Shown: positions 6,851 to 57,637 of the stretch, piece by piece
Layout: each line of letters begins with the position of its first letter
Numbering within the stretch: the stretch's first letter is position 1
DNA from: Malacoraja senta
Lineage: Eukaryota
Direction of reading: 5' to 3'
Assembly (NCBI GenBank): GCA_038087875.1
Contig: CM075989.1
Location: 22,942,001-23,002,000 of the forward strand
DNA: 60,000 bases
Made by a program: the position numbers and the translations under genes
The notes under the pieces: model-generated
Told to the model about the DNA's origin: nothing
Database searches by the model: none
The model's input: the letters and a program-made list of their open reading frames with translations, nothing else

Positions 6851-8605
6851 AAACATAGAAACATAGAAAATAGGTGCAGGAGTAGGCCATTCGGCCCTTC
6901 GAGCCTGCACCGCCATTCGATATGATCATGGCTGATCATCCAACTCAGTATCCCGTACCTGCCTTCTCTCCATACCCCCTGATCCCTTTAGCCACAAGGG
7001 CCACATCTAACTCCCTCTTAAATATAGCCAATGAACTGGCCTCAACTACCTTCTGTGGCAGAGAATTCCAGAGATTCACCACTCTCTGTGTGAAAAATGA
7101 TTTTCTCATCTCGGTCCTAAAAGACTTCCGCCTTATACTTAAACTGTGACCCCGTGTTCTGGACTTCCCCAACATCGGGAATAATCTTCCTGCATTTAGC
7201 CTGTCCAACCCCTTAAGAATCTTGTAAGTTTCTATAAGATCCCCCCTCAATCTTCTAAATTCGAGCAAGTACAAGCCGAGTCTATCCAGTCTTTCTTCAT
7301 ATGAAGTGCTGCCATCCCAGGAATCAGTCTGGTGAACCTTCTCTGTACTCCCTCTATGGCAAGAATGTCTTTCCTCAGATTTGGTGACCAAAACTGTACG
7401 CAATACTCCAGGTGTGGCCTCACCAAGACCCTGTACAACTGCAGTAGAACCTCCCTGCTCTTATACTCAAATCCTTTTGGTATGAATGCTAACATACCAT
7501 TTGCTTTCTTCACTGCCTGCTGCACCTGCATGCCTACTTTCAATGACTGGTGTACCATGACACCCAGGTCTCGTTGCATCTCCCCTTTTCCCAATCGGCC
7601 ACCATTCAGATAATAGTCTACTTTCCTGTTTTTGCCACCAAAGTGGATAACCTCACATTTATCCACATTATACTGCATCTGCCATGCATTTGCCCACTCA
7701 CCCAACCTATCTAAGTCACCTTGCAGCCTCCTAGCATCCTCCTCACAGCTAACACTGCCCCCCAGCTTCGTGTCATCAGCAAACTTGGAGATGTTGTATT
7801 CAATTCCCTCATCCAGATCATTAATATATATTGTAAATAGCTGGGGTCCCAGCACTGAGCCTTGCAGTACCCCACTAGTCACTGCCTGCCATTCTGAAAA
7901 GGACCCGTTTACTTCTACTCTTTGCTTCCTGTCTGCCAGCCAGTTCTCTATCCACATCAATACTGAACCCCCAATACCGTGTGCTTTAAGTTTGCATACT
8001 AATCTCTTATGTGGGACCTTGTCGAAAGCCTTCTGAAAGTCCAGATATAACACATCCACTGGTTCTCCCCTATCCACTCTACTAGTTACATCCTCGAAAA
8101 ATTCTATAAGATTCGTCAGACATGATTTACCTTTCGTAAATCCATGCTGACTTTGTCCAATGATTTCACCACTTTCCAAATGTGCTGCTATCCCATCTTT
8201 AATAACTGACTCTAGCATTTTCCCCACTACCGACGTTAGACTAACTGGTCTGTAATTCCCCGTTTTCTGTCTCCCTCCCTTTTTAAAAAGTGGGGTTACA
8301 TTAACTACCCTCCAATCCTCAGGAACTACTCCAGAATCTAAAGTGTTCTGAAAAATTATCACTAATGCATCCACTATTTCTGGAGCTACTTCCTTAAGTA
8401 CTCTGGGATGCAGCCTGTCTGGCCCTGGGGATTTATCGGCCTTTAATCCATTCAATTTACCTAACACCACTTCCCGACTAACCTGGATTTCACTCAGCTC
8501 CTCCATCTCATTTGACCCCCGGTCCCCTGCTATTTCCGGCAGATTATTTATGTCTTCCTTAGTGAAGACGGAACCAAAGTAGTTATTCAATTGGTCCGCC
8601 ATATC
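6851..8605 (-). mobile_element. CR1 LINE, 5'-truncated (RT + 3' end)
   Basis: 451-aa RT ORF 7247-8602 plus C-terminal ORF 6945-7403; (TTTCTATG)n tail. Confidence 0.96.
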
Positions 8606-9870
8606 CTGGAGAACGGGGCATTCTCACCGAGCTAACATTGCCCCGTTTCCATTATCATTGTTACTTGTTTTGCATTTCTTTCATTGATTTGTTCTGCATC
8701 ATCTATATCGCTCGTGACTTTCAGTCTGAAGAAGGGTCTCGTTACCCATTCCTTCTCTCCAGAGAGCTGCCTGTCCCACTGAGTTACGTGTCTATCTTTG
8801 GTATAAACCAGCATCTGCACTTCTTTGATCCTAATCATCATCTTTAGTTCTGTTTAAAGATACAGCACGGAAACAGGCCTTTCAGCCAGGTCCATGCTGA
8901 CCATCGATCACCCGTCCACGCAAGGTTCTAGGTTATCCCATTGCTCTCATGCACTCCTTACACACTGGGGGATAGTAAACAGAGGGCCAATTAACCCACA
9001 GTCCCGCACGTCTTTGGGGACCTGGGAGGAAACCGCAGCACCCGGAGGAAACCCACACGGTCACAGGGAGAACATGCAAACGCCAACTTGCCCCTGGAGT
9101 GCAGGTAGTGCAGTTCTGGCCTCCCCATGACAAGAGAGATGTGGATGCTTTAACCAGGGAGCAGAGGTGGTTTACCGGAATGCTGCCTGGCCCAGAGGGT
9201 TTCAGCTACAGGGTGAGCTTGGATAGACATGGATTGTTTTCTCTAGAACGTCGGAGATTGAGGGGGGACTTGAGAGAAGTGTATGAAATAATGAAAAGCA
9301 TAGATAGGGTAGACAGTCAGAACCTTTCATCCAGGGTGGAGATGTCCAGCACTAGAGGGCACAGCTATAAGATGAGAGGGGTCCTGGAACGCGTTGCCAG
9401 GGGTGGTGGTGGGCTCAGACACGTTGAGGAGGCATTTAGATAGGTGCAGGGTACTGAGGGATATGGAAATAGTCACTTCATGATGACTGCGTGGTCCTGC
9501 GCTTTCAGAAAACCGGGACATTAGATTTGCACCGCCAATCTTTTTGTGAACTTGTGCGGTTACTGCCCGTCACGGGTTTTATGCTTGCTGGGAATTTCTG
9601 CTCTCAAAAATCATCAGAAAGATAAAGATAGCATTGAGGCTGATCTGCATGTGAAAGAAAGGACAAAGTGCGGTTGGATAAACACAAGTGCTGCTCCCTG
9701 CAAAGGCAATTATAGGTGAGGCTTACGATAGTTCATCGAAATATGAAAGGCGATAGATAAGACAGTCTTGATCACAACTTCAAAGTGTGAAATCATAGTT
9801 ACTGCCAAGGACGGAGATTAAAATAGAGAGAATACTTTTTGATCAACTGCATTCACACATGCTTCAGAGA

Positions 9871-18471: not shown

Positions 18472-18912
18472 CACACAACCATGTTCGCCAGTTTGGCTGA
18501 TACTCTGGAACTAAACCAGTTTAGTTTAGCATAGTTTAGAGATACAGCGCAGAAACCGTCCCTTTGGCCCACCGAGTCCGCACCGATCAGCGATCCCCAC
18601 ACACTAACACTAGCCTGCACACACCTGGGACTATTTACATTTACACCAAGCCAATCGGCCTACTAACCTGTACGTCTTTGGAGTGTTGGAGGAAACTGAA
18701 GATCTCGGAGAAGACGGCGTGGGTTTTCTCCGAGTTCTTCGTCTTCCTCCCGCACAACCTCTGCAACTTAGCACAGCATTGGATGGGCAGCACATGCAGC
18801 AAGCACGTCCATGTACACAACAGTTGGCAGCTTTGATCAGTGCAGCTAATGTGTTGATCCTTGCAGCAGCAGGAGCCAGTGTCGCGAGGCGGAACACAGT
18901 GAAGTTGCTCAC

Positions 18913-19027
18913 CGCAGCGGTCCCGAATGACCAGGCGACGTCCCTCCTTCAGGTGAATCTTCAGCAGGTACGAGGGGAGTTGGCATGACGACGGGTCGCT
19001 ACTTTTCCCTTCTTGTTGCTCCAAGGC
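18913..19027 (-). CDS. MCTP2: MCTP2-like 115-nt exon, start of the first C2 domain
   Basis: Encodes ALEQQEGKSSDPSSCQLPSYLLKIHLKEGRRLVIRDRC(G), matching the MCTP2 C2A motif [20 protein letters not shown]. Acceptor ttgtttgtgtcccag|, donor G|gtgag (phase 1). Confidence 0.92.
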
Positions 19028-19659
19028 CTGGGACACAAACAAAACAAATCCCTGTTAACCAGCCCCTGCTTCCCAGTCAATGGTGCCAAGGGCCCGGCGT
19101 GGGGGGACTGCCATGAGGAGGGGGAGAGGGGGAGAACAAAGGGGGGGCCTGGCACCGGGGGATAATTCATAACTTTCTAAGCGCCCTTTACATAGCGACT
19201 ATTCGCATACCTTGGGATTGCAAGCAAAGTATTTCACTATGACTTATCACTTGTGACAATAAAGTATTCATTCATTCATTCATGTTTCAAAGCCCATGGT
19301 CATCTTAAAAACCGACCTCCATGGCGACAGTGCAAGCAGACTAGCAGTTCTATCACAGCAAGAGACACAAGATGCTGGAGTAACTCAGCGGGACAGGCAG
19401 CATCTCTGGAGGGAAGAATGGGTGATTGTTCGGGTCACTGAAGAAGAGTCTTGACCCGAAATATCACCCATAACTTTTCTCCAGAGGTGCTGCCTGACCC
19501 GCTGAGTTGCTCCAGCATTTTTGTGTCTATCTTTGGTGTAAACCAGCATCTGCAGTTCCTTCCTAAACTATTATGGTAATAACGCATTAACTGCAGCAAG
19601 ACACTTGGTGACTGTAGACGCAGTTCTACTCCATCCTAGAGCCTCACTATACAATAAAT

Positions 19660-27509: not shown

Positions 27510-28381
27510 TACCTTTAGAATGGAGATGGAGGGATTTCTTTAGCCAGAGCGTGGTGGGTCTATGAAATTCATTGCCACAGACGGCAGTGGAGGCCAAGAC
27601 ATTGGGTATTTTTAAAGCAGAGATGGATATGTTCTTGATTAGCAAAGGCTCAAAGGTCACAGGCAGAAGGCAGGAGAATGGGGTCGAGAGGGAACAATAG
27701 ATCAGCCACGATCGAATAGAGGAGCAAACTCGATGGGCTGAATGGTCTAATTCTGCATTTACGTCTTATGATCTAAAGGTGAGAAACATCAATGGATCAG
27801 GAACTGAAGAAAAGAACACTGACACAAGAGAAATGCGTGATTGAACAGCACGCTGGGCTAAAATACCACTCATTTCCAAAGGTGCTGTTGCTGTGGTAAC
27901 CACTTATTAGTGGTGAACTTTTTTGAAACCAGAGTCAGAATTCTGGCCTAATTAAAAAAGGTACAGGGAAGGTTCTGGAAACAAAATGTCACATACTTAA
28001 TAAACCACACTGGAGAGATATTAAAAAAAAAAAAAACATAATCAGTTGTGAACCTTTGAAATGTTATTTAATCTTTTAGTTTCGGACTCAGCCTTTTACA
28101 CCACAGTGGCCCAGCTGGTAGAGATGCTGTCTCAGCGCCAGAGACCCCGACTCAAAGCTGACCTCAGGTGCTGGCTGTGTGGAGTTTGCACGTTCTCACT
28201 GTGAATGTGGGTGTTTCCAACAAGTTCTCCGGGTTTAAGGTCATAAGTTCATAAGTGATAGGACTAGAATGAGGCCATTCGGCCCATCAAACCTACTCCG
28301 CCATTCAATCATGGCTGATCTTCCTCTCCCTCCGAACCCCAATCTCCTGCCTTCTCCCCATAACCTCTGATACCCGTACTA

Positions 28382-31300
28382 AACTAGAATGGTTGGGGGG
28401 AGGGACTCAAATAGAGAATGCTATTAGACAGTGTGTGAGGCAGGAGGCAGAGAAGGAAAGCACTCAGACCCAACATGTAGGGGTGAAAGAAGAAAACAAT
28501 AATAAACAGAGAATAAGAGGTGGTGGGGTTCTTAAATGGGTGAGCAGAGAAACAGAGGGGTGTAAAATGCGGGCGGAAGCAATAGGTAGCAAGGTGAAAG
28601 GTAAAAGTGGCAGGCAGACAAATTCAGGGCAAAAATCAAAAAGAGCCACTTTTCAACATAATTGTATAAGGGGTAAGAGCGTTGTAAAAACAAGCCTGAA
28701 GGCTTTGTGTCTCAATGCAAGGAGCATTCGTAATAAGGTGGATGAGTTGAACGTGCAGATAGCAATTAATGATTATGATATAGTTGGGATCACGGAGACA
28801 TGGCTCCAAGGTGACCAAGGCTGGGAGCTGAACATCCAGGGGATATTCAATATTCAGGAGGGATAGAGAGAAAGGAAAAGGAGGTGGGGTAGCGTTGCTG
28901 GTTAGAGAGGAGATTAACGCAGTGGAAAGGAAGGACATTAGCTTGGAGGATGTGGAATCGGTATGGGTAGAGCTGCGAAACACTAAGGGGCAGAAAACGC
29001 TGGTGGGCGTTGTGTACAGGCCACCTAGCAGTAGTAGTGAAGTTGGGGATGGCATCAAAACAGGAAATTAGAAATGCGTGCAACAAAGGCAAAACAGTTA
29101 TAATGGGTGACTTCAATCTACATATAGATTGGGTGAATCAAATTGGCAGGGGTGCTGAGGAAGAGGATTTCTTGGAATGTATGAGGGATAGTTATCTAAA
29201 CCAACATGTAGAGGAACCAACGAGAGAGCAGGCTATTCTAGACTGGGTATTGAGTAATGAGGAAGGGTTAGTTAGCAGACTTGTTGTGCGTGCCCCCTTG
29301 GGCAAGAGTGATCATAATATGGTTGAGTTCTTCATTAGGATGGAGAGTGACATTGTTAATTCAGAAACAACAGTTCTGAACTTAAAGAAAGGTAACTTTG
29401 AGGGTATGAGATGTGAATTGGCCAAGATTGACTGGCAATTAGTTCTAAAAGGGTTGATGGTGGATATGCAATGGAAGGCATTTAAAGACTGCATGGATGA
29501 ACTACAAAAATTGTTCATCCCAGTTTGGCAAAAGAATAAATCAAGGAAGGTAGTGCATCCGTGGATAACAAGGGAAATCAGGGATAGTATCAAAGCAAAA
29601 GATGATGCGTACAAATTAGCTAGAAAAAGCAGCATACCAGAGGACTGGGAGAAATTCAGAGACCAGCAGAGGAGGACAAAGGGCTTAATTAGGAAAGGGA
29701 AAATAGATTATGAAAGGAAACTGGCAGGGAACATAAAAACTGACTGCAAAAGTTTTTATAGATATGTGAAGAGAAAGAGATTAGTTAAATCAAATGTAGG
29801 TCCCTTGCAGTCAGAAACAGGTGAATTGATCATGGGGAACAAGGATATGGCAGACCAATTGAATAACTACTTTGGTTCCGTCTTCACTAAGGAAGACATA
29901 AATAATCTGCCGGAAATAGCAGGGGGCCGCGGGTCAAAGGAGATGGAGGAACTGAGTGAAATCCAGGTTAGTCGGGAAGTGGTGTTGGGTAAATTGAATG
30001 GATTAAAGGCCGATAAATCACCAGGGCCAGATAGGCTGCATCCCAGAGTACTTAAGGAAGTAGCTCCAGAAATAGTGGATGCATTAGTGATAATTTTTCA
30101 AAACTCTTTAGATTCTGGAGTAGTTCCTGAGGATTGGAGGGTAGCAAACGTAACCCCACTTTTTAAGAAGGAGGGAGAGAGAAAACGGGGAATTACAGAC
30201 CAGTTAGTCTAACATCGGTAGTGGGGAAACTGTTAGAGTCAGTTATTAAAGATGGGATAGCAGCACATTTGGAAAGTGGTGAAATCATTGGACAAAGTCA
30301 GCATGGATTTACGAAAGGTAAATCGTGTCTGACGAATCTTATAGAATTTTTCGAGGATGTAACTAGTAGAGTGGATAGGGGAGAACCAGTGGATGTGTTG
30401 TATCTGGACTTTCAGAAGGCTTTCGACAAGGTACCACATAAGAGATTAGGATACAAACTTAAATCACACGGTATTGGGGGTTCAGTATTGATGTGGATAG
30501 AGAACTGGCTGGCAAACAGGAAGCAAAGAGTAGGAGTAAACGGGTCCTTTTCACAATGGCAGGCAGTGACTAGTGGGGTACCGCAAGGCTCAGTGCTGGG
30601 ACCCCAGCTATTTACAATTTATATTAATGATCTGGACGAGGGAATTGAAAGCAACATCTCCAAGTTTGCGGATGACACTAAGCTGGGGGGCAGTGTTAGC
30701 TGTGAGGAGGATGCTAGGAGACTGCAAGGTGACTTGGATAGGCTGGGTGAGTGGGCAAATGTTTGGCAGATGCAGTATAATGTGGATAAATGTGAGGTTA
30801 TCCACTTTGGTAGCAAAAACGGGAAGGCAGACTATTATCTATGGTGGCCGATTAGGAAATGGGGAGATGCAGCGAGACCTGGGTGTCATGGTACACCAGT
30901 CATTGAAAGTAGGCATGCAGGTGCAGCAGGCAGTGAAGAAAGCGAATGGTATGTTGGCCTTCATAGCAAGAGGATTTGAGTATAGGAGCAGCGAGGTTCT
31001 ACTGCAGTTGTACAGGGTCTTGGTGAGACCACACCTGGAGTATTGCGTACAGTTTTGGTCTCCAAATCTGAGGAAGGACATTATAGCCATAGAGGGAGTG
31101 CAGAGAAGGTTCACCAGACTGATTCCTGGGATGTCAGGACTTTCATATGAAGAAAGACTGGATAGACTTGGCTTATACTCGCTAGAATTTAGGAGATTGA
31201 GAGGGGATCTTATAGAAACGTACAAGATTCTTATGGGGTTGGACAGGCTAGATGCAGGAAGATTGTTCCCGATGTTGGGGAAGTCCAGGACAAGGGGTCA

Positions 31301-31598
31301 CAGCTTAAGGATAAGGGGGAAATCCTTTAGGACCGAGATGAGGAAAAACTTTTTCACACAGAGAGTGGTGAATCTCTGGAACTCTCTGCCACAGAGGGTA
31401 GTTGAGGCCAGTTCATTGGCTATATTTAAGAAGGAATTAGATGTGGCCCTTGTGGCTAAAGGGATCAGGGGGTATGGAGAGAAGGCAGGTACGGGATACT
31501 GAGTTGGATGATCAGCCATGATCGTATTGAATGGCGGTGCAGGCTCGAAGGGCCGAATGGCCTACTCCTGCACCTATTTTCTATGTATCTATGTATCT
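28382..31598 (+). mobile_element. CR1 (HER1-like) LINE, 5'-truncated, with near-complete ORF2 (APE endonuclease + RT) broken by frameshifts
   Basis: APE motifs LNARSI, GITETW, MGDFN and SDH; RT motifs YLDFQKAFDKV, GVPQGSVLGP and KFADD. Frame changes near 28840, 30175 and 30840. (TATCTATG)n tail. Confidence 0.96.
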
Positions 31599-41594: not shown

Positions 41595-42738
41595 AGCCCC
41601 TGTCCCACTTTCACGACCTAATTGGCGACCTCTGCCGAGTTTGCCCTTGACTCATACTCGCAGCATGGTCGCCACGAGGTCGTAAGAGGTCTTCGTAACT
41701 CTTCCTCATGCTTGTGAGTGATCTCAGCGTACTCGTGGCCTCAAGTAGGTCGCGGCGTTTTTTCCAGCCTGACAAAAAATGTCCACGAGTAAAAAAAAGT
41801 CGCCATGGAAAAAATTGATACTTTTTACTCGTAGGTAGGTCGTAGGTAGTCCGGTCGTAGGTAGGTCGGTCGTAGGTAGGTCGGTCGTAGGTAGGTCGGT
41901 CGTAGGTAGGTCGGTCGTAGGTAGGTCGGTCGTAGGTAGGTCGGTCGTAGGTAGGTCGGTCGTAGGTAGGTCGGTCGTAGGTAGGTCGGTCGTAGGTAGG
42001 TCGGTCGTAGGTAGGTCGGGCGTAGGTAGGTCGGGCGTAGGTAGGTCGGGCGTAGGTAGGTGGGTCGTAGGTAGGTGGGTCGTAGGTAGGTGGGTCGTAG
42101 GTAGGTGGGTCGTAGGTAGGTGGGACGTAGGTAGGTGGGACGTAGGTAGGTGGGACGTAGGTAGGTGGGACGTAGGTAGGTGGGACGTAGGTAGGTCGGT
42201 CGTAGGTAGGTCGGTCGTAGGTAGGTCGGTCGTAGGTAGGTCGGTCGTAGGTAGGTCGGTCGTAGGTAGGTCGGTCGTAGGTAGGTCGGTCGTAGGTAGG
42301 TGGGTCGTAGGTAGGTGGGTCGTAGGTAGGTCGGTCGTAGGTAGGTCGGTCGTAGGTAGGTCGGTCGTAGGTAGGTCGGTCGTAGGTAGGTGGGTCGTAG
42401 GTAGGTGGGTCGTAGGTAGGTCGGTCGTAGGTAGGTCGGTCGTAGGTAGTCATAGGTAGGTAACTGGCCCGAGAATAAAAATGCAAACTTGACATCATTT
42501 TATCATGTGATAATTTTCCACTCGTAGCTAGTCATAGTTGGTCTTAGGTGTGGAAGACTGAGGTCGAGGGGGGTCGTAGGCATAGTCTTGGGAGGTCGTA
42601 GACATAGTCGTAGGAGGTCGTAGACACAGTCGCAGGAGGTCTTTTACTTCAGCGAGTCAACACGACTTTGACATTTTTTTCAACTCGTCTAGGGTCTTCT
42701 AAACTCGTGGATTAGGTCGTCCAAGTGGGACAGGCCCT
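41595..42738. mobile_element. PIF/Harbinger-like MITE with an internal minisatellite
   Basis: Same terminal motif; TTA TSD at 41592-41594 and 42739-42741. Confidence 0.85.
41830..42460 (+). repeat. 15-bp minisatellite (GGTCGTAGGTAGGTS)n, about 40 units
   Basis: Read directly; contains blocks of variant units. Confidence 0.97.
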
Positions 42739-47335: not shown

Positions 47336-47586
47336 ATTAGTATCTCTCTTTTTCTTGGAGAAAGGGAGTTCAAATTTTCACAACGGGCATCGTGACCCCC
47401 GAGATTGCCATTTGTGAATCATCAAGTTACCGAAGCCACAATAATTACACCAAATAGTCAAGTATCTTATTATTCAAACAATGACTAACTGCTTGACTCA
47501 GGATGATCGATACTGTCAATACAGATTATCAAAGGTCCTTCACAAAATCAATACCTTTTCCTTCCCAGTTATATGACTTAAGAAGG

Positions 47587-47637
47587 GGGGTGGAAGATTG
47601 CAACCTTCACGTGGTCCGCCCTGTTTTAACGAATGCA
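47587..47637 (+). ncRNA. Minimal HDV-like self-cleaving ribozyme motif
   Basis: P1 GGGGUGG/CCGCCCU (G1-U wobble), P2 UGCA/UGCA, P3 ACC/GGU, L3 UUCACGU, single G for P1.1, rudimentary P4, J4/2 CGAA. Confidence 0.75.
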
Positions 47638-47710
47638 CAATGAAATAAGATCAAATAGAACAAGTTGTCCTACAACTTTAGGCTGTGCACGCCATACGCA
47701 AGAAGAAGAA
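47587..47710 (+). mobile_element. 124-bp SINE-like retroelement headed by a minimal HDV-like ribozyme
   Basis: 12-bp TSD gacttaagaagg (47575-47586 and 47711-47722), (AGA)n tail and 3' hairpin aagttgt-cct-acaactt. The 5' 51 nt fit the HDV topology. Confidence 0.85.
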
Positions 47711-47847
47711 GACTTAAGAAGGCTCTTCAGTCTTGAGTGCAGTCTAGTTATCAGTAAGAAGGCAATTGTTTGGTATATTACATTTGAAGAACAGCACTTA
47801 TTTTTAAACACATAATAACATTACCAGCTGGCACAAATAAATAAGGA

Positions 47848-49812: not shown

Positions 49813-50216
49813 CATGATTTTCTGCAGCTCTATCAACATCACCCCTCATCCTCCTGCGCTCCAAGGAATAAATCCTAGCCTGCTCAACCTCTCCCTATAG
49901 CTCAGTTCCTCGAGTCCTGGCAACATCCTGGTAAATCTTCTCTGCACCCTTTCAAGCTCGACAACATCTGTTCTATAACATGGTGACCAAGCCCGAACAC
50001 AAGACTCTAAATGTGGCTTCACCAACTTCTTATACAACTGTAACATGACCTCCCAACCTCTGTACTCTGACTGATGAAGGCCAAATGTACCGAAAGCCTT
50101 CTTAACCACCCTCATTTTCAAGAAATCTGCACTCCTAGATCCCTCTGCTCCACAACACATGTTGGATTTACCAATTAATTCCTTCAATCCTCCAGAGCGG
50201 ACCAGTCACCACTTAC

Positions 50217-50675
50217 CACATATTTTCCTTCCATCATTGTATCTGCCAGGGTCACGTCCGGAATGATTTCCTCGTCGGTTCTGCTGGATTCCTTCTCCGA
50301 TGCAGGCAACCCAATGGGTGGAGAAGCTTCATTGTCAGGGCAGGGGTTTGCAGGTTGACCAGCCTCCACCGAGAGTGCCGCACCCTCCTGGAGGATGTCC
50401 TCTTCACTCCTCTCGTCCGCCTTCTTGACTGGGGTGGAGGGGCTGCTGTAGTAATTGGGGGCACGGGACGGGACGATGGGGGGCGAGCAGCCTTCGTTGT
50501 AGCTCTTGACCACCTGCAGCATGTCGGGCTCCGACACGCTCATCCGCTTGTCCAGGAGTCGTCTCTGCAAGCCTGCCTTCCTCTTGCCCGACATCTTGCC
50601 CTTCAGGTTCTGCAGGAGGGGTTTGGTCTTCGCCCGGAAGGACCTCCACCTGGTGATCTCCTTCTGCTCATCCAT
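50217..50675 (-). CDS. MCTP2: MCTP2-like first coding exon (153 codons); the exon probably extends as 5'UTR to an acceptor at 50757
   Basis: MDEQKEITRWRSFRAKTKPLLQNL...RRLLDKRMSVSEPDML resembles the MCTP2 N-terminus as I recall it (WGSLKQRTRPLLINL...HHLDRRLSLSVPDLL). Phase-0 donor GTG|gtaagt at 50217/50216. Pyrimidine-rich acceptor ctctctttctccag| ends at 50758. Confidence 0.88.
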
Positions 50676-50857
50676 CGCCTTGGCCGCCGTGCCGAGTCCT
50701 CACGACAACCAGCAAAAACAGAGATGGGACTCTGGCCAGCGTCAGGAGAAACAGGATCTGGAGAAAGAGAGCACACAGTATTTTCATCATGACAGAAAAT
50801 TCAACCACATGAGCTCAATACACCACGGTGAAAGGAAACTATCCCCCTGCAACAAGA

Positions 50858-55100: not shown

Positions 55101-57637
55101 CAGGGGGGTGGGTGGAGGGTGTCCCCCTCCCATTGGTATGGAACTATTGCATTTTTCAGCTTGAAATTGTGCAATATGGAGCAAACTGTAGCAAGTCGTT
55201 TAACTTACACTTGAATGCAATATATATGCTTTAAATTGGATTGGAGCATTTTTTAAAGGGGGGAGGCTGAGCGATCACTGATCACTGGCCTTGGGGGTAC
55301 TCGGTGAGGGAGTGGAGCAACCGAGTGGGGAGAGGGTGTGGAAGAAGGGTGTCCCCTCTCCCAGGGTAGGAACCTTTTGAAATTTGATGTATTAAAATCA
55401 TGTTTTAGTGCATTGTAGAAGTACATTTCAATGTTCTTTGTATGAAGTATTTTTAAGAGGTAACTTTTTAAGGGGTAACTTTATCGACACAAAGGGTGAT
55501 GGGTGTATGGAACAAGCTGCCAGAGGAGGTAGTTGAGGCAGGGACCATCCCAACATTTAAGAAAAAGTTAGACTGATACATGGATAGGACAGGTTTGGAG
55601 GTATGGACCAAAAGCAGGTAGTGTAGCTGGGACATGTTGGCGGGTGTGGGCAAGTTGGGCCGAAGGGCCTGTTTTCACACTGTATCACTCCATGACTACG
55701 TTATACCTCCACCATGCATGAATGCTTCAAAATCAAGTGGTCGAGTTTTATTGCCATATACTCAAGCATAGAAACATAGAAAATAGGTGGAGGAATAGGC
55801 CATCGGCCCTTCGAGCCAGCACTGCCATTCAATATGATCATGGCTATTCATCTAAAATCAGGACCTCTTTCCTGTTTTTTCCCCATATCCCTTGATGTCG
55901 TTAGCCCCAAGAACTAAATCTAACTTTCTTGAAAACATCCAGTGAATTGGCCTGCACCGCCTTCTGTGGCAGAGAATTCCACAGATTCACAACTCTCTGT
56001 GAAGAAAGTTTGTCCTCATCTCAGTCCTAACTGCCCCCCCCCCCTTTATTTTTAAACTGTGACCCCTGGTTCTGAACTCTCCCAACATCAGGAACATTTT
56101 TCCTGCAGTTACAGGAAGTGAAAATCTAGCAGGCAAGCAGGATGCTTTCTCCAACCACCCCCATTTGAAGTCTACTATCTTCCGCCGTTTCTACCCAGTA
56201 CTTGGTACTTACTTCCAGCAGCCACTGATTGTCCTCCTGGATGCACCGAGCCGCAGCCTGATCCATGCCGGTCACCTGGGCCAATTTGGCAAAGAGACCC
56301 TCACGGCAGCGGCGCAACGCTTCCAACGCCTTGCACTGATTGAGGCTGCTCCATGGCCGGAGCTGCAGTGAGCGACTCGCCAGCCCGGGAAACACTCGCC
56401 AGCCCCGCTCCCCGTCTGCACCTGTCCCCACCGCTGCTTCTGCTTCCAACACCCGCGGCCCATGCAGTTGATATGAGTTTTTAAATTTTCGTTGATCACA
56501 GAATTTCTCACAACAGAGCGAGAGAAATTTGTGATCAGCGTGAGAATTTGGCGAAATGCGTGATTCTCACGTTCAATGCATGGGAGTTGGCAGCCCTGCC
56601 TCTCTCCCCCCCTCTCTCTCCACCTCTCTTTCCCAGCTCTCTCTCCCTGTTTCTCCTCTCACCCCCTCTCTCTCCCGTCTCGCCCCTCACTCTCTCCCCT
56701 TCCCTCTCTCCTCTCCCCCCTCTCTCTCCCCCTTCACCACTCTCCCCCTCTCTCGTCCCCTCTCCTCTCTCCCCCCTCTCCTCTCCCTCTCTCCCTCCTA
56801 ACTCTCTCTCCACACTTTCCCCTAACTCTCTCCCCCTCTCTCTCTCTTCTCTCTCCCCCTCTCTCTCTTTCTCCCTCTCCACACACTCTCCCCCTCTCTG
56901 TCTCTCCTCTCTCTCTCTCATCTCCCCCATTTCTCCCTCCCACCTCACTCTCCCCCTTGCTCTCTCTCCTCTCTCTTTCACCTCTGTCTCTATCTCCTCT
57001 TTCTCTTTGCCCCCCCAATCTCTCTCTTTCCCCCTCTCTCCCCCCTCTCTTTTACCACCCTTCTCTTCCCCCTCTCCCATTCTCTCCTACCCTCTCCTCC
57101 CCCTCTCTCTTCCCTCTCACCCCTCTCTTTCCCCCCCTCTCCCACCTCACACTCCCCCCTCTCACCCCCCCCTCTCTCCCTCTTCTCTCTCTCCATTCAC
57201 TCCCCCTCTGTCTCTCTCCTCTCACCCCTCTCCCCCCCGTCTCCTTCCCCTCTCTCTCTCTCCACCTCCCTTTGAGAGTCTGTCCCTTCGGCACAGAGAC
57301 CCTCGCGGCAGAGGCGCAACGCTTCCGACGCCTCCGACGGCCCGGGACTCTTGCACTGCTCCATGGCCGGAGCTGCAGCAAGCGACTCGCCAGCCCCGCA
57401 AACACTCGCCAGCCCCGACTCCCCGCATCTGTATCCGCCCGCTGCTTCCTTCCTTCCCTCCCTCAGCCCCGGCTCTCCAACACCCGCGGCCCATGCAGTT
57501 CATCTGAGTTTTGAAATTTTCGTTGATCACAGAATTTCTCACGACAGAGCGTGAGAACTTTCTGATCAGCGTGAGGGGGTGAGAGTTTACTCAAATGCGT
57601 GATTCTCACGCTCAAAGCGTGAGAGTTGGCAGCCCTG
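55101..57637. mobile_element. Composite non-autonomous DNA element, CAGGG...CCCTG, 7-bp TSD
   Basis: gaaacat at 55094-55100 and 57638-57644 interrupts the CR1 motif ggaaacatcctctcc. Contains two copies of a ~300-bp right end (56293-56598 and 57294-57637). Confidence 0.65.
56599..57270 (+). repeat. ~670-bp low-complexity polypyrimidine (CT-rich) tract
   Basis: Read directly. Confidence 0.95.

Follow-up and report, generated by a model that had tools for sequence, protein, structure and literature searches.

The window, the whole 60-kb stretch of DNA analysed here, carries on its + strand a 124-nt element bracketed by identical 12-mers at 47575–47586 and 47711–47722. The first 51 nt of the element hold their parts in the order of an HDV ribozyme, and a strict descriptor (P1 of 7 bp, P2 of 4–8 bp, P3, L3, the P1.1 G and C-N-R-A) matched once in the window, at this element, and nowhere in the reversed window. 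An initial annotation had described a ribozyme-headed SINE here, and its coordinates for the target-site duplications (TSDs), P1, P3, L3, G47623, C47630, CGAA, the 3' strand of P2 and the tail were all reproduced. It had drawn the 5' strand of P2 as 47599–47602; that strand is really 7 nt long, although this copy does keep the four contiguous pairs that were described. The features are as follows.

47575..47586, + strand: 5' target-site duplication, 12 bp, the same as 47711–47722; TSDs in the family are mostly 11–13 nt
47587..47637, + strand: predicted P4-less HDV-like ribozyme with a CPEB3-type core, from the 5' end of the parent LINE (descriptor match; 88% over 43 nt to LINE L123; cross-family covariation)
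47587..47593, + strand: P1 5' strand, pairing with 47616–47622 (7/7, G1·U36); G1 is the first base of the element and the predicted cleavage site
47596..47602, + strand: P2 5' strand, 7 nt, with contiguous partners kept only for the last 4 nt in this copy
47603..47615, + strand: P3 (3 bp, 47603–05/47613–15) and the 7-nt L3 (47606–12), which is identical to the L3 of the Rfam CPEB3 consensus
47623..47629, + strand: G37/U38 and a 5-nt linker replacing P4; single C22–G37 P1.1 pair, U21·U38
47630..47633, + strand: J4/2, CGAA; C47630 is the predicted catalytic cytosine (HDV C75, CPEB3 C57)
47634..47637, + strand: P2 3' strand, 4 nt in this copy
47634..47641, + strand: deletion junction, 15 nt gone between two TGCA repeats
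47665..47708, + strand: last 44 nt of the parent LINE, comprising final codons, ORF stop (47679–47681), 3' UTR and start of the tail (95% over 44 nt to L123, E = 3e-13)
47700..47710, + strand: (AAG)n tail; L123 and L100 end in the same tail
47711..47722, + strand: 3' target-site duplication, identical to the 5' 12-mer
50184..50699, − strand: open frame of a tentatively MCTP2-like host gene, lying upstream of the element

This frame and another at 18641–19054 suggest that the element sits antisense in an intron of the host gene, which may be MCTP2-like, judging by the translations of two exons on the minus strand; the name was not confirmed in Pfam, PDB or the Atlas. The window also holds CR1-type LINE fragments at 7247–8623 (−) and 28273–31502 (+) and several shorter ones, one of them all being nearly full length. 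The genome as a whole is rich in CR1, and its repeat content suggests a cartilaginous fish. At 41611–42531 the window has a tandem array of a 15-nt repeat, and at 56485–57514 an extended low-complexity tract rich in CT.

The expectation that the element would have other genomic copies was borne out. A 30-nt head pattern had 3,705 exact matches in the 1.94-Gb genome and a 24-nt tail pattern had 2,930, with none for either reversed control; the family thus has at least 3,705 copies. Ninety loci reduced to 76 distinct copies, 71 of them full length, and TSDs were found in 59 of these 71 (8–17 nt, with 45 of the 59 at 11–13 nt), compared with 1 of 207 shuffled flank pairs. As had been predicted, full-length 5' ends pile up at G1: the TSD boundary lay within 1 nt of it in 50 of the 59 copies. 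Among 30 loci anchored on the tail instead (two are a tandem duplicate), 28 had the head and 20 had its four Gs in register. Median divergence from the majority sequence was 2.6% outside CpG (41 copies). Near-identical sequence was present in sequencing runs (contigs) of seven coded organisms, A to G, and was not found in those of H; nine of the 20 run rows with such sequence are marked as possible sources of the assembly, a mark that the rows for A, D, E and G do not carry. The two runs recorded as RNA, with fewer than 5 words, were left aside. Several copies have been split by later insertions (L039, L060, L091 and L044). One of them, L091, with head and tail 1.36 kb apart, was considered as a LINE and turned out to be a short element split by another insertion.

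Ordinary copies are ~139 nt long, with a P2 paired at 7/7 and a 3' domain that a long stem closes, so the 124-bp length and 4-bp P2 first described are right for the window copy and not for the family. The 15-nt loss takes away the end of P2 together with the 5' arm of the long 3' stem. P2 pairing drops to 4/7, as opposed to 7/7 in L049 and L044, and the folding z of the 3' domain is −0.26, as opposed to −4.4 in the intact L045. The junction had 17 exact matches genome-wide and was present on differing head variants, from which we infer repeated slippage rather than a subfamily. The window copy reads as a rare deletion variant with a weakened P2, and a dead end.

Intact copies fold on paper as a nested double pseudoknot with 7, 7, 3 and 1 pairs in P1, P2, P3 and P1.1, and have G1·U, U20, G25 and the catalytic C. 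The proposal that the stems covary held across sister families for P1, P2 and P3. P2 keeps its 7/7 pairing in three families that each have a P2 sequence of their own, P3 likewise is paired 3/3 with three sequences, and P1 and P3 change in step across the families (single copies keep 5–7 of 7 pairs in P1); within the family, stem changes are only one-sided. A search with HDV-like models had also been suggested, and its outcome was divided: the descriptor finds the site, and Rfam gave the intact copy an HDV_ribozyme match of 20.4 bits (E = 0.44; cut-off 50), and no HDV-type match on the window copy at E ≤ 5. The head of the element family stayed under every Rfam cut-off, whereas the sister families do pass RF00622.

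Common non-CpG variants among copies are at nt 8 in J1/2, at nt 32 in P1 (U·G or U-A) and at the second base of J4/2, which is G or U at 20–49% of depth in four runs; the parent LINE has the U-A form in P1 and the U form in J4/2. Besides CpG decay, the shared ribozyme variants fall on tolerant sites. Two CpG-type changes lie within 47623..47629 of the window copy. The catalytic role of C47630 is predicted from the model position aligned in the intact copy L049, and the P1.1 comparison follows a published description of the CPEB3 ribozyme (10.1101/2022.09.22.508989). We infer self-cleavage of the element from the pairing evidence and the known chemistry of the fold (PMC6326823).

A core pattern had 63 more sites in the genome (control, 27), and 12 were fetched: two were 5' ends of a LINE family that we call F1, eight belonged to a second short family and two were variants of the element family. 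The second short family is ~175 nt long, has TSDs and carries the same 5-nt linker instead of P4. Its members (L160–L165, L168 and L171) have a Vingi-like tail, score 20–37 bits on RF00622 and are closed by a long stem that spans from the region after P2 to the 3' end; six of the pattern matches are clustered at C2:2.65–3.78 Mb. Metagenome contigs had no exact match to the head pattern, and 36 metagenome loci (174 kb) had none to the strict descriptor, nor did four of them to a relaxed one. The metagenome contig L149 gave a sub-threshold CPEB3 match in Rfam (19.9 bits, E = 0.012), and this distant LINE has a decayed head with further compensatory pairs in P1 and P3. The contig (2062–2114; also L150 and L151) carries a Vingi-like LINE whose decayed CPEB3-type head lies ~140 nt upstream of an APE match.

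Several routes were taken to a parent of the element. A pattern at the middle of the element had 65 matches of mixed kinds and no recurrent LINE flank; a tail pattern had 95 (control, 3), also with no recurrent LINE flank, one match later proving to be a LINE end. In four sequencing runs, no LINE-like loose end on the element was found. A degenerate pattern for an RT motif had 391 matches in several families (control, 0), and one of these lay 800 nt upstream of a tail-like match, in a LINE whose 3' end is 80% identical to the element over 44 nt. Four other RT-motif families, one of them interrupted, had 3' ends that did not match the element.

The LINE sharing the 3' end of the element, which had been sought from the start, is L123, a Vingi-type LINE of this genome that is nearly full length and has its own TSD. 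It matches the element head at 90% over 70 nt (E = 3e-19) and its tail at 95% over 44 nt. APE (PF14529) and RT (PF00078) domains were found in it, and RNase H (PF00075) had no match in the six L123 pieces scanned and does not figure in the domains listed for 120 proteins homologous to the sister RT. A single ORF with APE and RT, seen in the L123 pieces and near-continuous with two frameshifts in the sister L172, and the lack of RNase H, which separates Vingi from Ingi, agree with the Vingi clade (Vingi-1_Acar, Vingi-2_Gav, Vingi-1_BF and Vingi-2_SPur; PMC13708176). The RT of the parent family differs from that of F1, being only 44% identical to it, and is 47% identical to an Anolis homolog not named Vingi; the placement is by domain make-up and by 5' ends resembling those of named Vingi elements.

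L123 begins at ribozyme nt 9–10 and is damaged: its frame has stops, part of the RT is deleted and 497 nt have been inserted. Among the copies examined, none of the parent family had an intact ORF or the first 8 nt complete. When 18 parent-family copies were probed 1.9 kb upstream, one had the head in place (L123), one had an inverted head, and 17 did not have it in place. Parent LINE 3' ends number 35 exact matches and 204 at ≤1 mismatch, far fewer than the short element. Long-range pairing between the 5' UTR and 3' end of L123 was unsupported, with 105 of 174 control windows equal or better in a copy that is decayed there. The 497-nt insertion (L123:1992–2488), in the APE region, has terminal inverted repeats and an 8-bp duplication, and holds a GC-rich coding-like stretch that is possibly a captured host fragment.

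Copy L054 bears on how the short form arose: it follows the LINE 5' UTR for 92 nt and then runs straight into the LINE 3' end, with the junction preserved. A 6-nt repeat stands just before the LINE ATG and again at the ORF end, and is likely the deletion point. The element is the first ~80 nt of the LINE, its last ~44 nt and a short linker; because the tail comes from the LINE 3' end, it includes the LINE stop codon. With both parts matching one LINE, dispersal with TSDs and no ORF, the element has the composition of a SIDE, that is, an internally deleted LINE, and the class name SINE did not survive. A SINE in the strict sense would have a tRNA, 7SL, 5S or snRNA head with pol III boxes; the head here is LINE-derived, Rfam gave no such match, and the element has neither an A box (at ≤1 mismatch) nor an exact B box, the absence of both having been noted correctly at the outset. 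The distinction between internally deleted LINEs and SINEs is drawn in PMC4494074 and PMC5786205.

The partner suggested earlier, an RTE-type LINE, had to be given up in favour of the Vingi-type LINE, which has both ends. The 8 DUF6451 (PF20049) loci examined, of 150 matches, represent three RTE families, and their 3' regions share nothing longer than 10 nt with the element. The genome has at least three RTE families (L092–L099), ending in (AAG)n or (TAAG)n. That one of them ends in the same (AAG)n, and that RTE elements are known to bear such ribozymes and to yield bipartite derivatives, speak for a SINE mobilised by an RTE LINE; given these comparisons we consider it highly improbable. An RTE origin is already refuted, which leaves at most occasional cross-mobilisation by RTE.

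We are confident, if short of certain, that the element is non-autonomous, derives from a Vingi-type LINE by internal deletion and has a ribozyme-based mobilisation scheme. Transcription of a source copy would come about by read-through from the host or start at a promoter within the head, the ribozyme would cut just 5' of G1 and free an RNA of ~140 nt, and the APE-RT protein of the LINE would bind the common 3' end and insert the RNA by target-primed reverse transcription. The shortness of this RNA and its defined 5' end would, we propose, explain why copies are mostly full length and have the ribozyme rebuilt. Since the element is non-coding, it would move in trans, as the initial annotation held.

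An internal promoter would likewise give a fixed 5' end, and the head might be mainly an RNA polymerase II promoter starting at G1. The ribozyme fold would then be of lesser weight or an additional function. A precedent in the sister Ingi/L1Tc clade is Pr77 of L1Tc, which serves as promoter and ribozyme alike (PMC4035085, PMC3383444), and Vingi heads are conserved in sequence and not in pairing alone. We nevertheless find this reading rather unlikely, because the stems change with compensation while pairing is kept, which indicates selection on RNA structure, and because the element starts exactly at the HDV cleavage position. More doubtful still is a ribozyme inherited from the LINE that no longer cuts in the short element, with full-length copies arising where reverse transcription of read-through RNA stalls at the folded head. 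A CPEB3-type single-pair P1.1 is weak, P4 is absent, and some copies that have TSDs of their own carry deletions running through J4/2 or P2. Deletions of this kind are rare, however (the 17 exact window-type junctions and the 65 mixed matches), and did not amplify, the changes fixed in source elements preserve the ribozyme core, the second short family independently retained the same P4-less core, and P4-less ribozymes have been reported active (PMC6326823, citing Riccitelli 2014). We therefore regard this reading as improbable and retain an internally deleted Vingi derivative with a predicted self-cleaving head.

Bipartite non-autonomous LINEs are known from RTE, Ingi, Vingi and R2 (PMC5786205). 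The element resembles NARTc (from L1Tc), RIME (from ingi), the R2 SIDEs, the Vingi-1_EE derivatives and Bov-A in joining LINE 5' and 3' ends, lacking an ORF, having TSDs and being moved in trans. NARTc and the R2 SIDEs also start with an HDV-like ribozyme (PMC5786205, PMC4035085). Unlike these bipartite LINEs, the element belongs to a vertebrate, has thousands of copies, is ~139 nt long and has a ribozyme without P4. PMC5786205 lists six ribozyme-bearing clades, with Vingi not among them, and does not mention CPEB3. A known design, in which an internally deleted LINE is headed by a ribozyme, is thus extended to vertebrate Vingi elements; what is new here is a P4-less, vertebrate Vingi version of it with a 54-nt ribozyme and thousands of copies.

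Among ribozymes, the element shares L3, G37/U38, J4/2 and the 16-nt spacing from G1 to P3 with the CPEB3 ribozyme (RF00622), and differs from it in the sequences of P1, P2 and P3 and in lacking P4. The CPEB3 ribozyme is single-copy and conserved in a host intron, unlike the element. Minimal P4-less HDV-like and theta ribozymes come from microbiome and phage sequences, whereas the carrier of the element is a vertebrate retroposon. In those ribozymes, P4 is replaced by a short linker, as it is here (PMC6326823).

The likeness to CPEB3 is strongest in F1, a young Vingi-type LINE family (L166, L167 and L172; G000:C1:86602673–86605300 and C1:217550467–217550700). Two of its heads are 99% identical, its APE-RT ORF is near-continuous and begins just past the head, and its RT motif lies 2,249–2,282 nt downstream of the head in three copies. 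The F1 heads scored 59.7 and 63.8 bits on RF00622 (cut-off 35; E = 5e-15 and 2e-16) with a full P4, and no other Rfam family matched them at E ≤ 0.5. Genome-wide, 39 of 51 RF00622 matches were above the cut-off, with only 59 of 102,231 candidates scored. In 16 of the 63 pattern matches, 22 consecutive nt agree fully with the core of the CPEB3 consensus, 12 of these positions being fixed by the pattern itself.

The F1 head is also close to named Vingi 5' ends in the supplement of PMC5786205 (Kojima 2018), which gives those of Vingi-2_Gav, Vingi-4_Crp and Vingi-1_BF, a segment of Vingi-2_SPur and the Vingi-derived middle of the alligator SINE2-1_AMi. Compared by eye with the CPEB3 consensus, Vingi-2_Gav agrees at 46 of 48 positions outside P4, SINE2-1_AMi at 57 of 62 without the L4 loop (14 of 14 in the P4 stem), F1 at 46 of 63 and the window element family at about 27 of 49 outside P4. 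The heads compared with CPEB3 in this way were of Vingi type only. The HDV fold requires only about six fixed bases, and the R2 and HDV cores have 21 of 27 in common by constraint (PMC8256844). The identity of Vingi and CPEB3 across P2, J1/2 and P4 goes well beyond what the fold imposes.

Vingi heads range from lancelet to crocodilians, the CPEB3 ribozyme is reported in mammals only (PMC8233481) and Vingi traces are present in the human genome (PMC5753468), which together point to a direction from Vingi to CPEB3. Domestication of a Vingi 5' end is the probable source of the CPEB3 ribozyme. We think it likely, overall, that the Vingi clade starts with a CPEB3-type HDV-like ribozyme, that this genome holds two short P4-less derivatives of it, and that the ribozyme in the CPEB3 intron derives from an amniote Vingi 5' end or a SINE carrying one. 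That vertebrate intronic ribozymes were domesticated from mobile elements has been suggested in general terms, without naming a donor (PMC7761336). A Vingi–CPEB3 ribozyme link was not found in the open literature as accessible to us; repeat databases, patents, subscription journals and bioRxiv supplements lay outside this search.

If the link is true, it tells where the CPEB3 ribozyme came from and which way the transfer went, and it supplies real outgroups. The provenance of this ribozyme, which has been linked to memory in mice (PMC10919898), would become directly testable. It would also undercut the view that the HDV ribozyme must derive from CPEB3. In Vingi-based gene-writing systems (PMC13708176), the retained 5' UTR probably self-cleaves.

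Vingi-type copies also showed LINE heads on the opposite strand beside their own bodies, at L108, G000:C2:72571934–72572085 and G000:C1:380487059–380487582, an arrangement that suggests 5' inversions.
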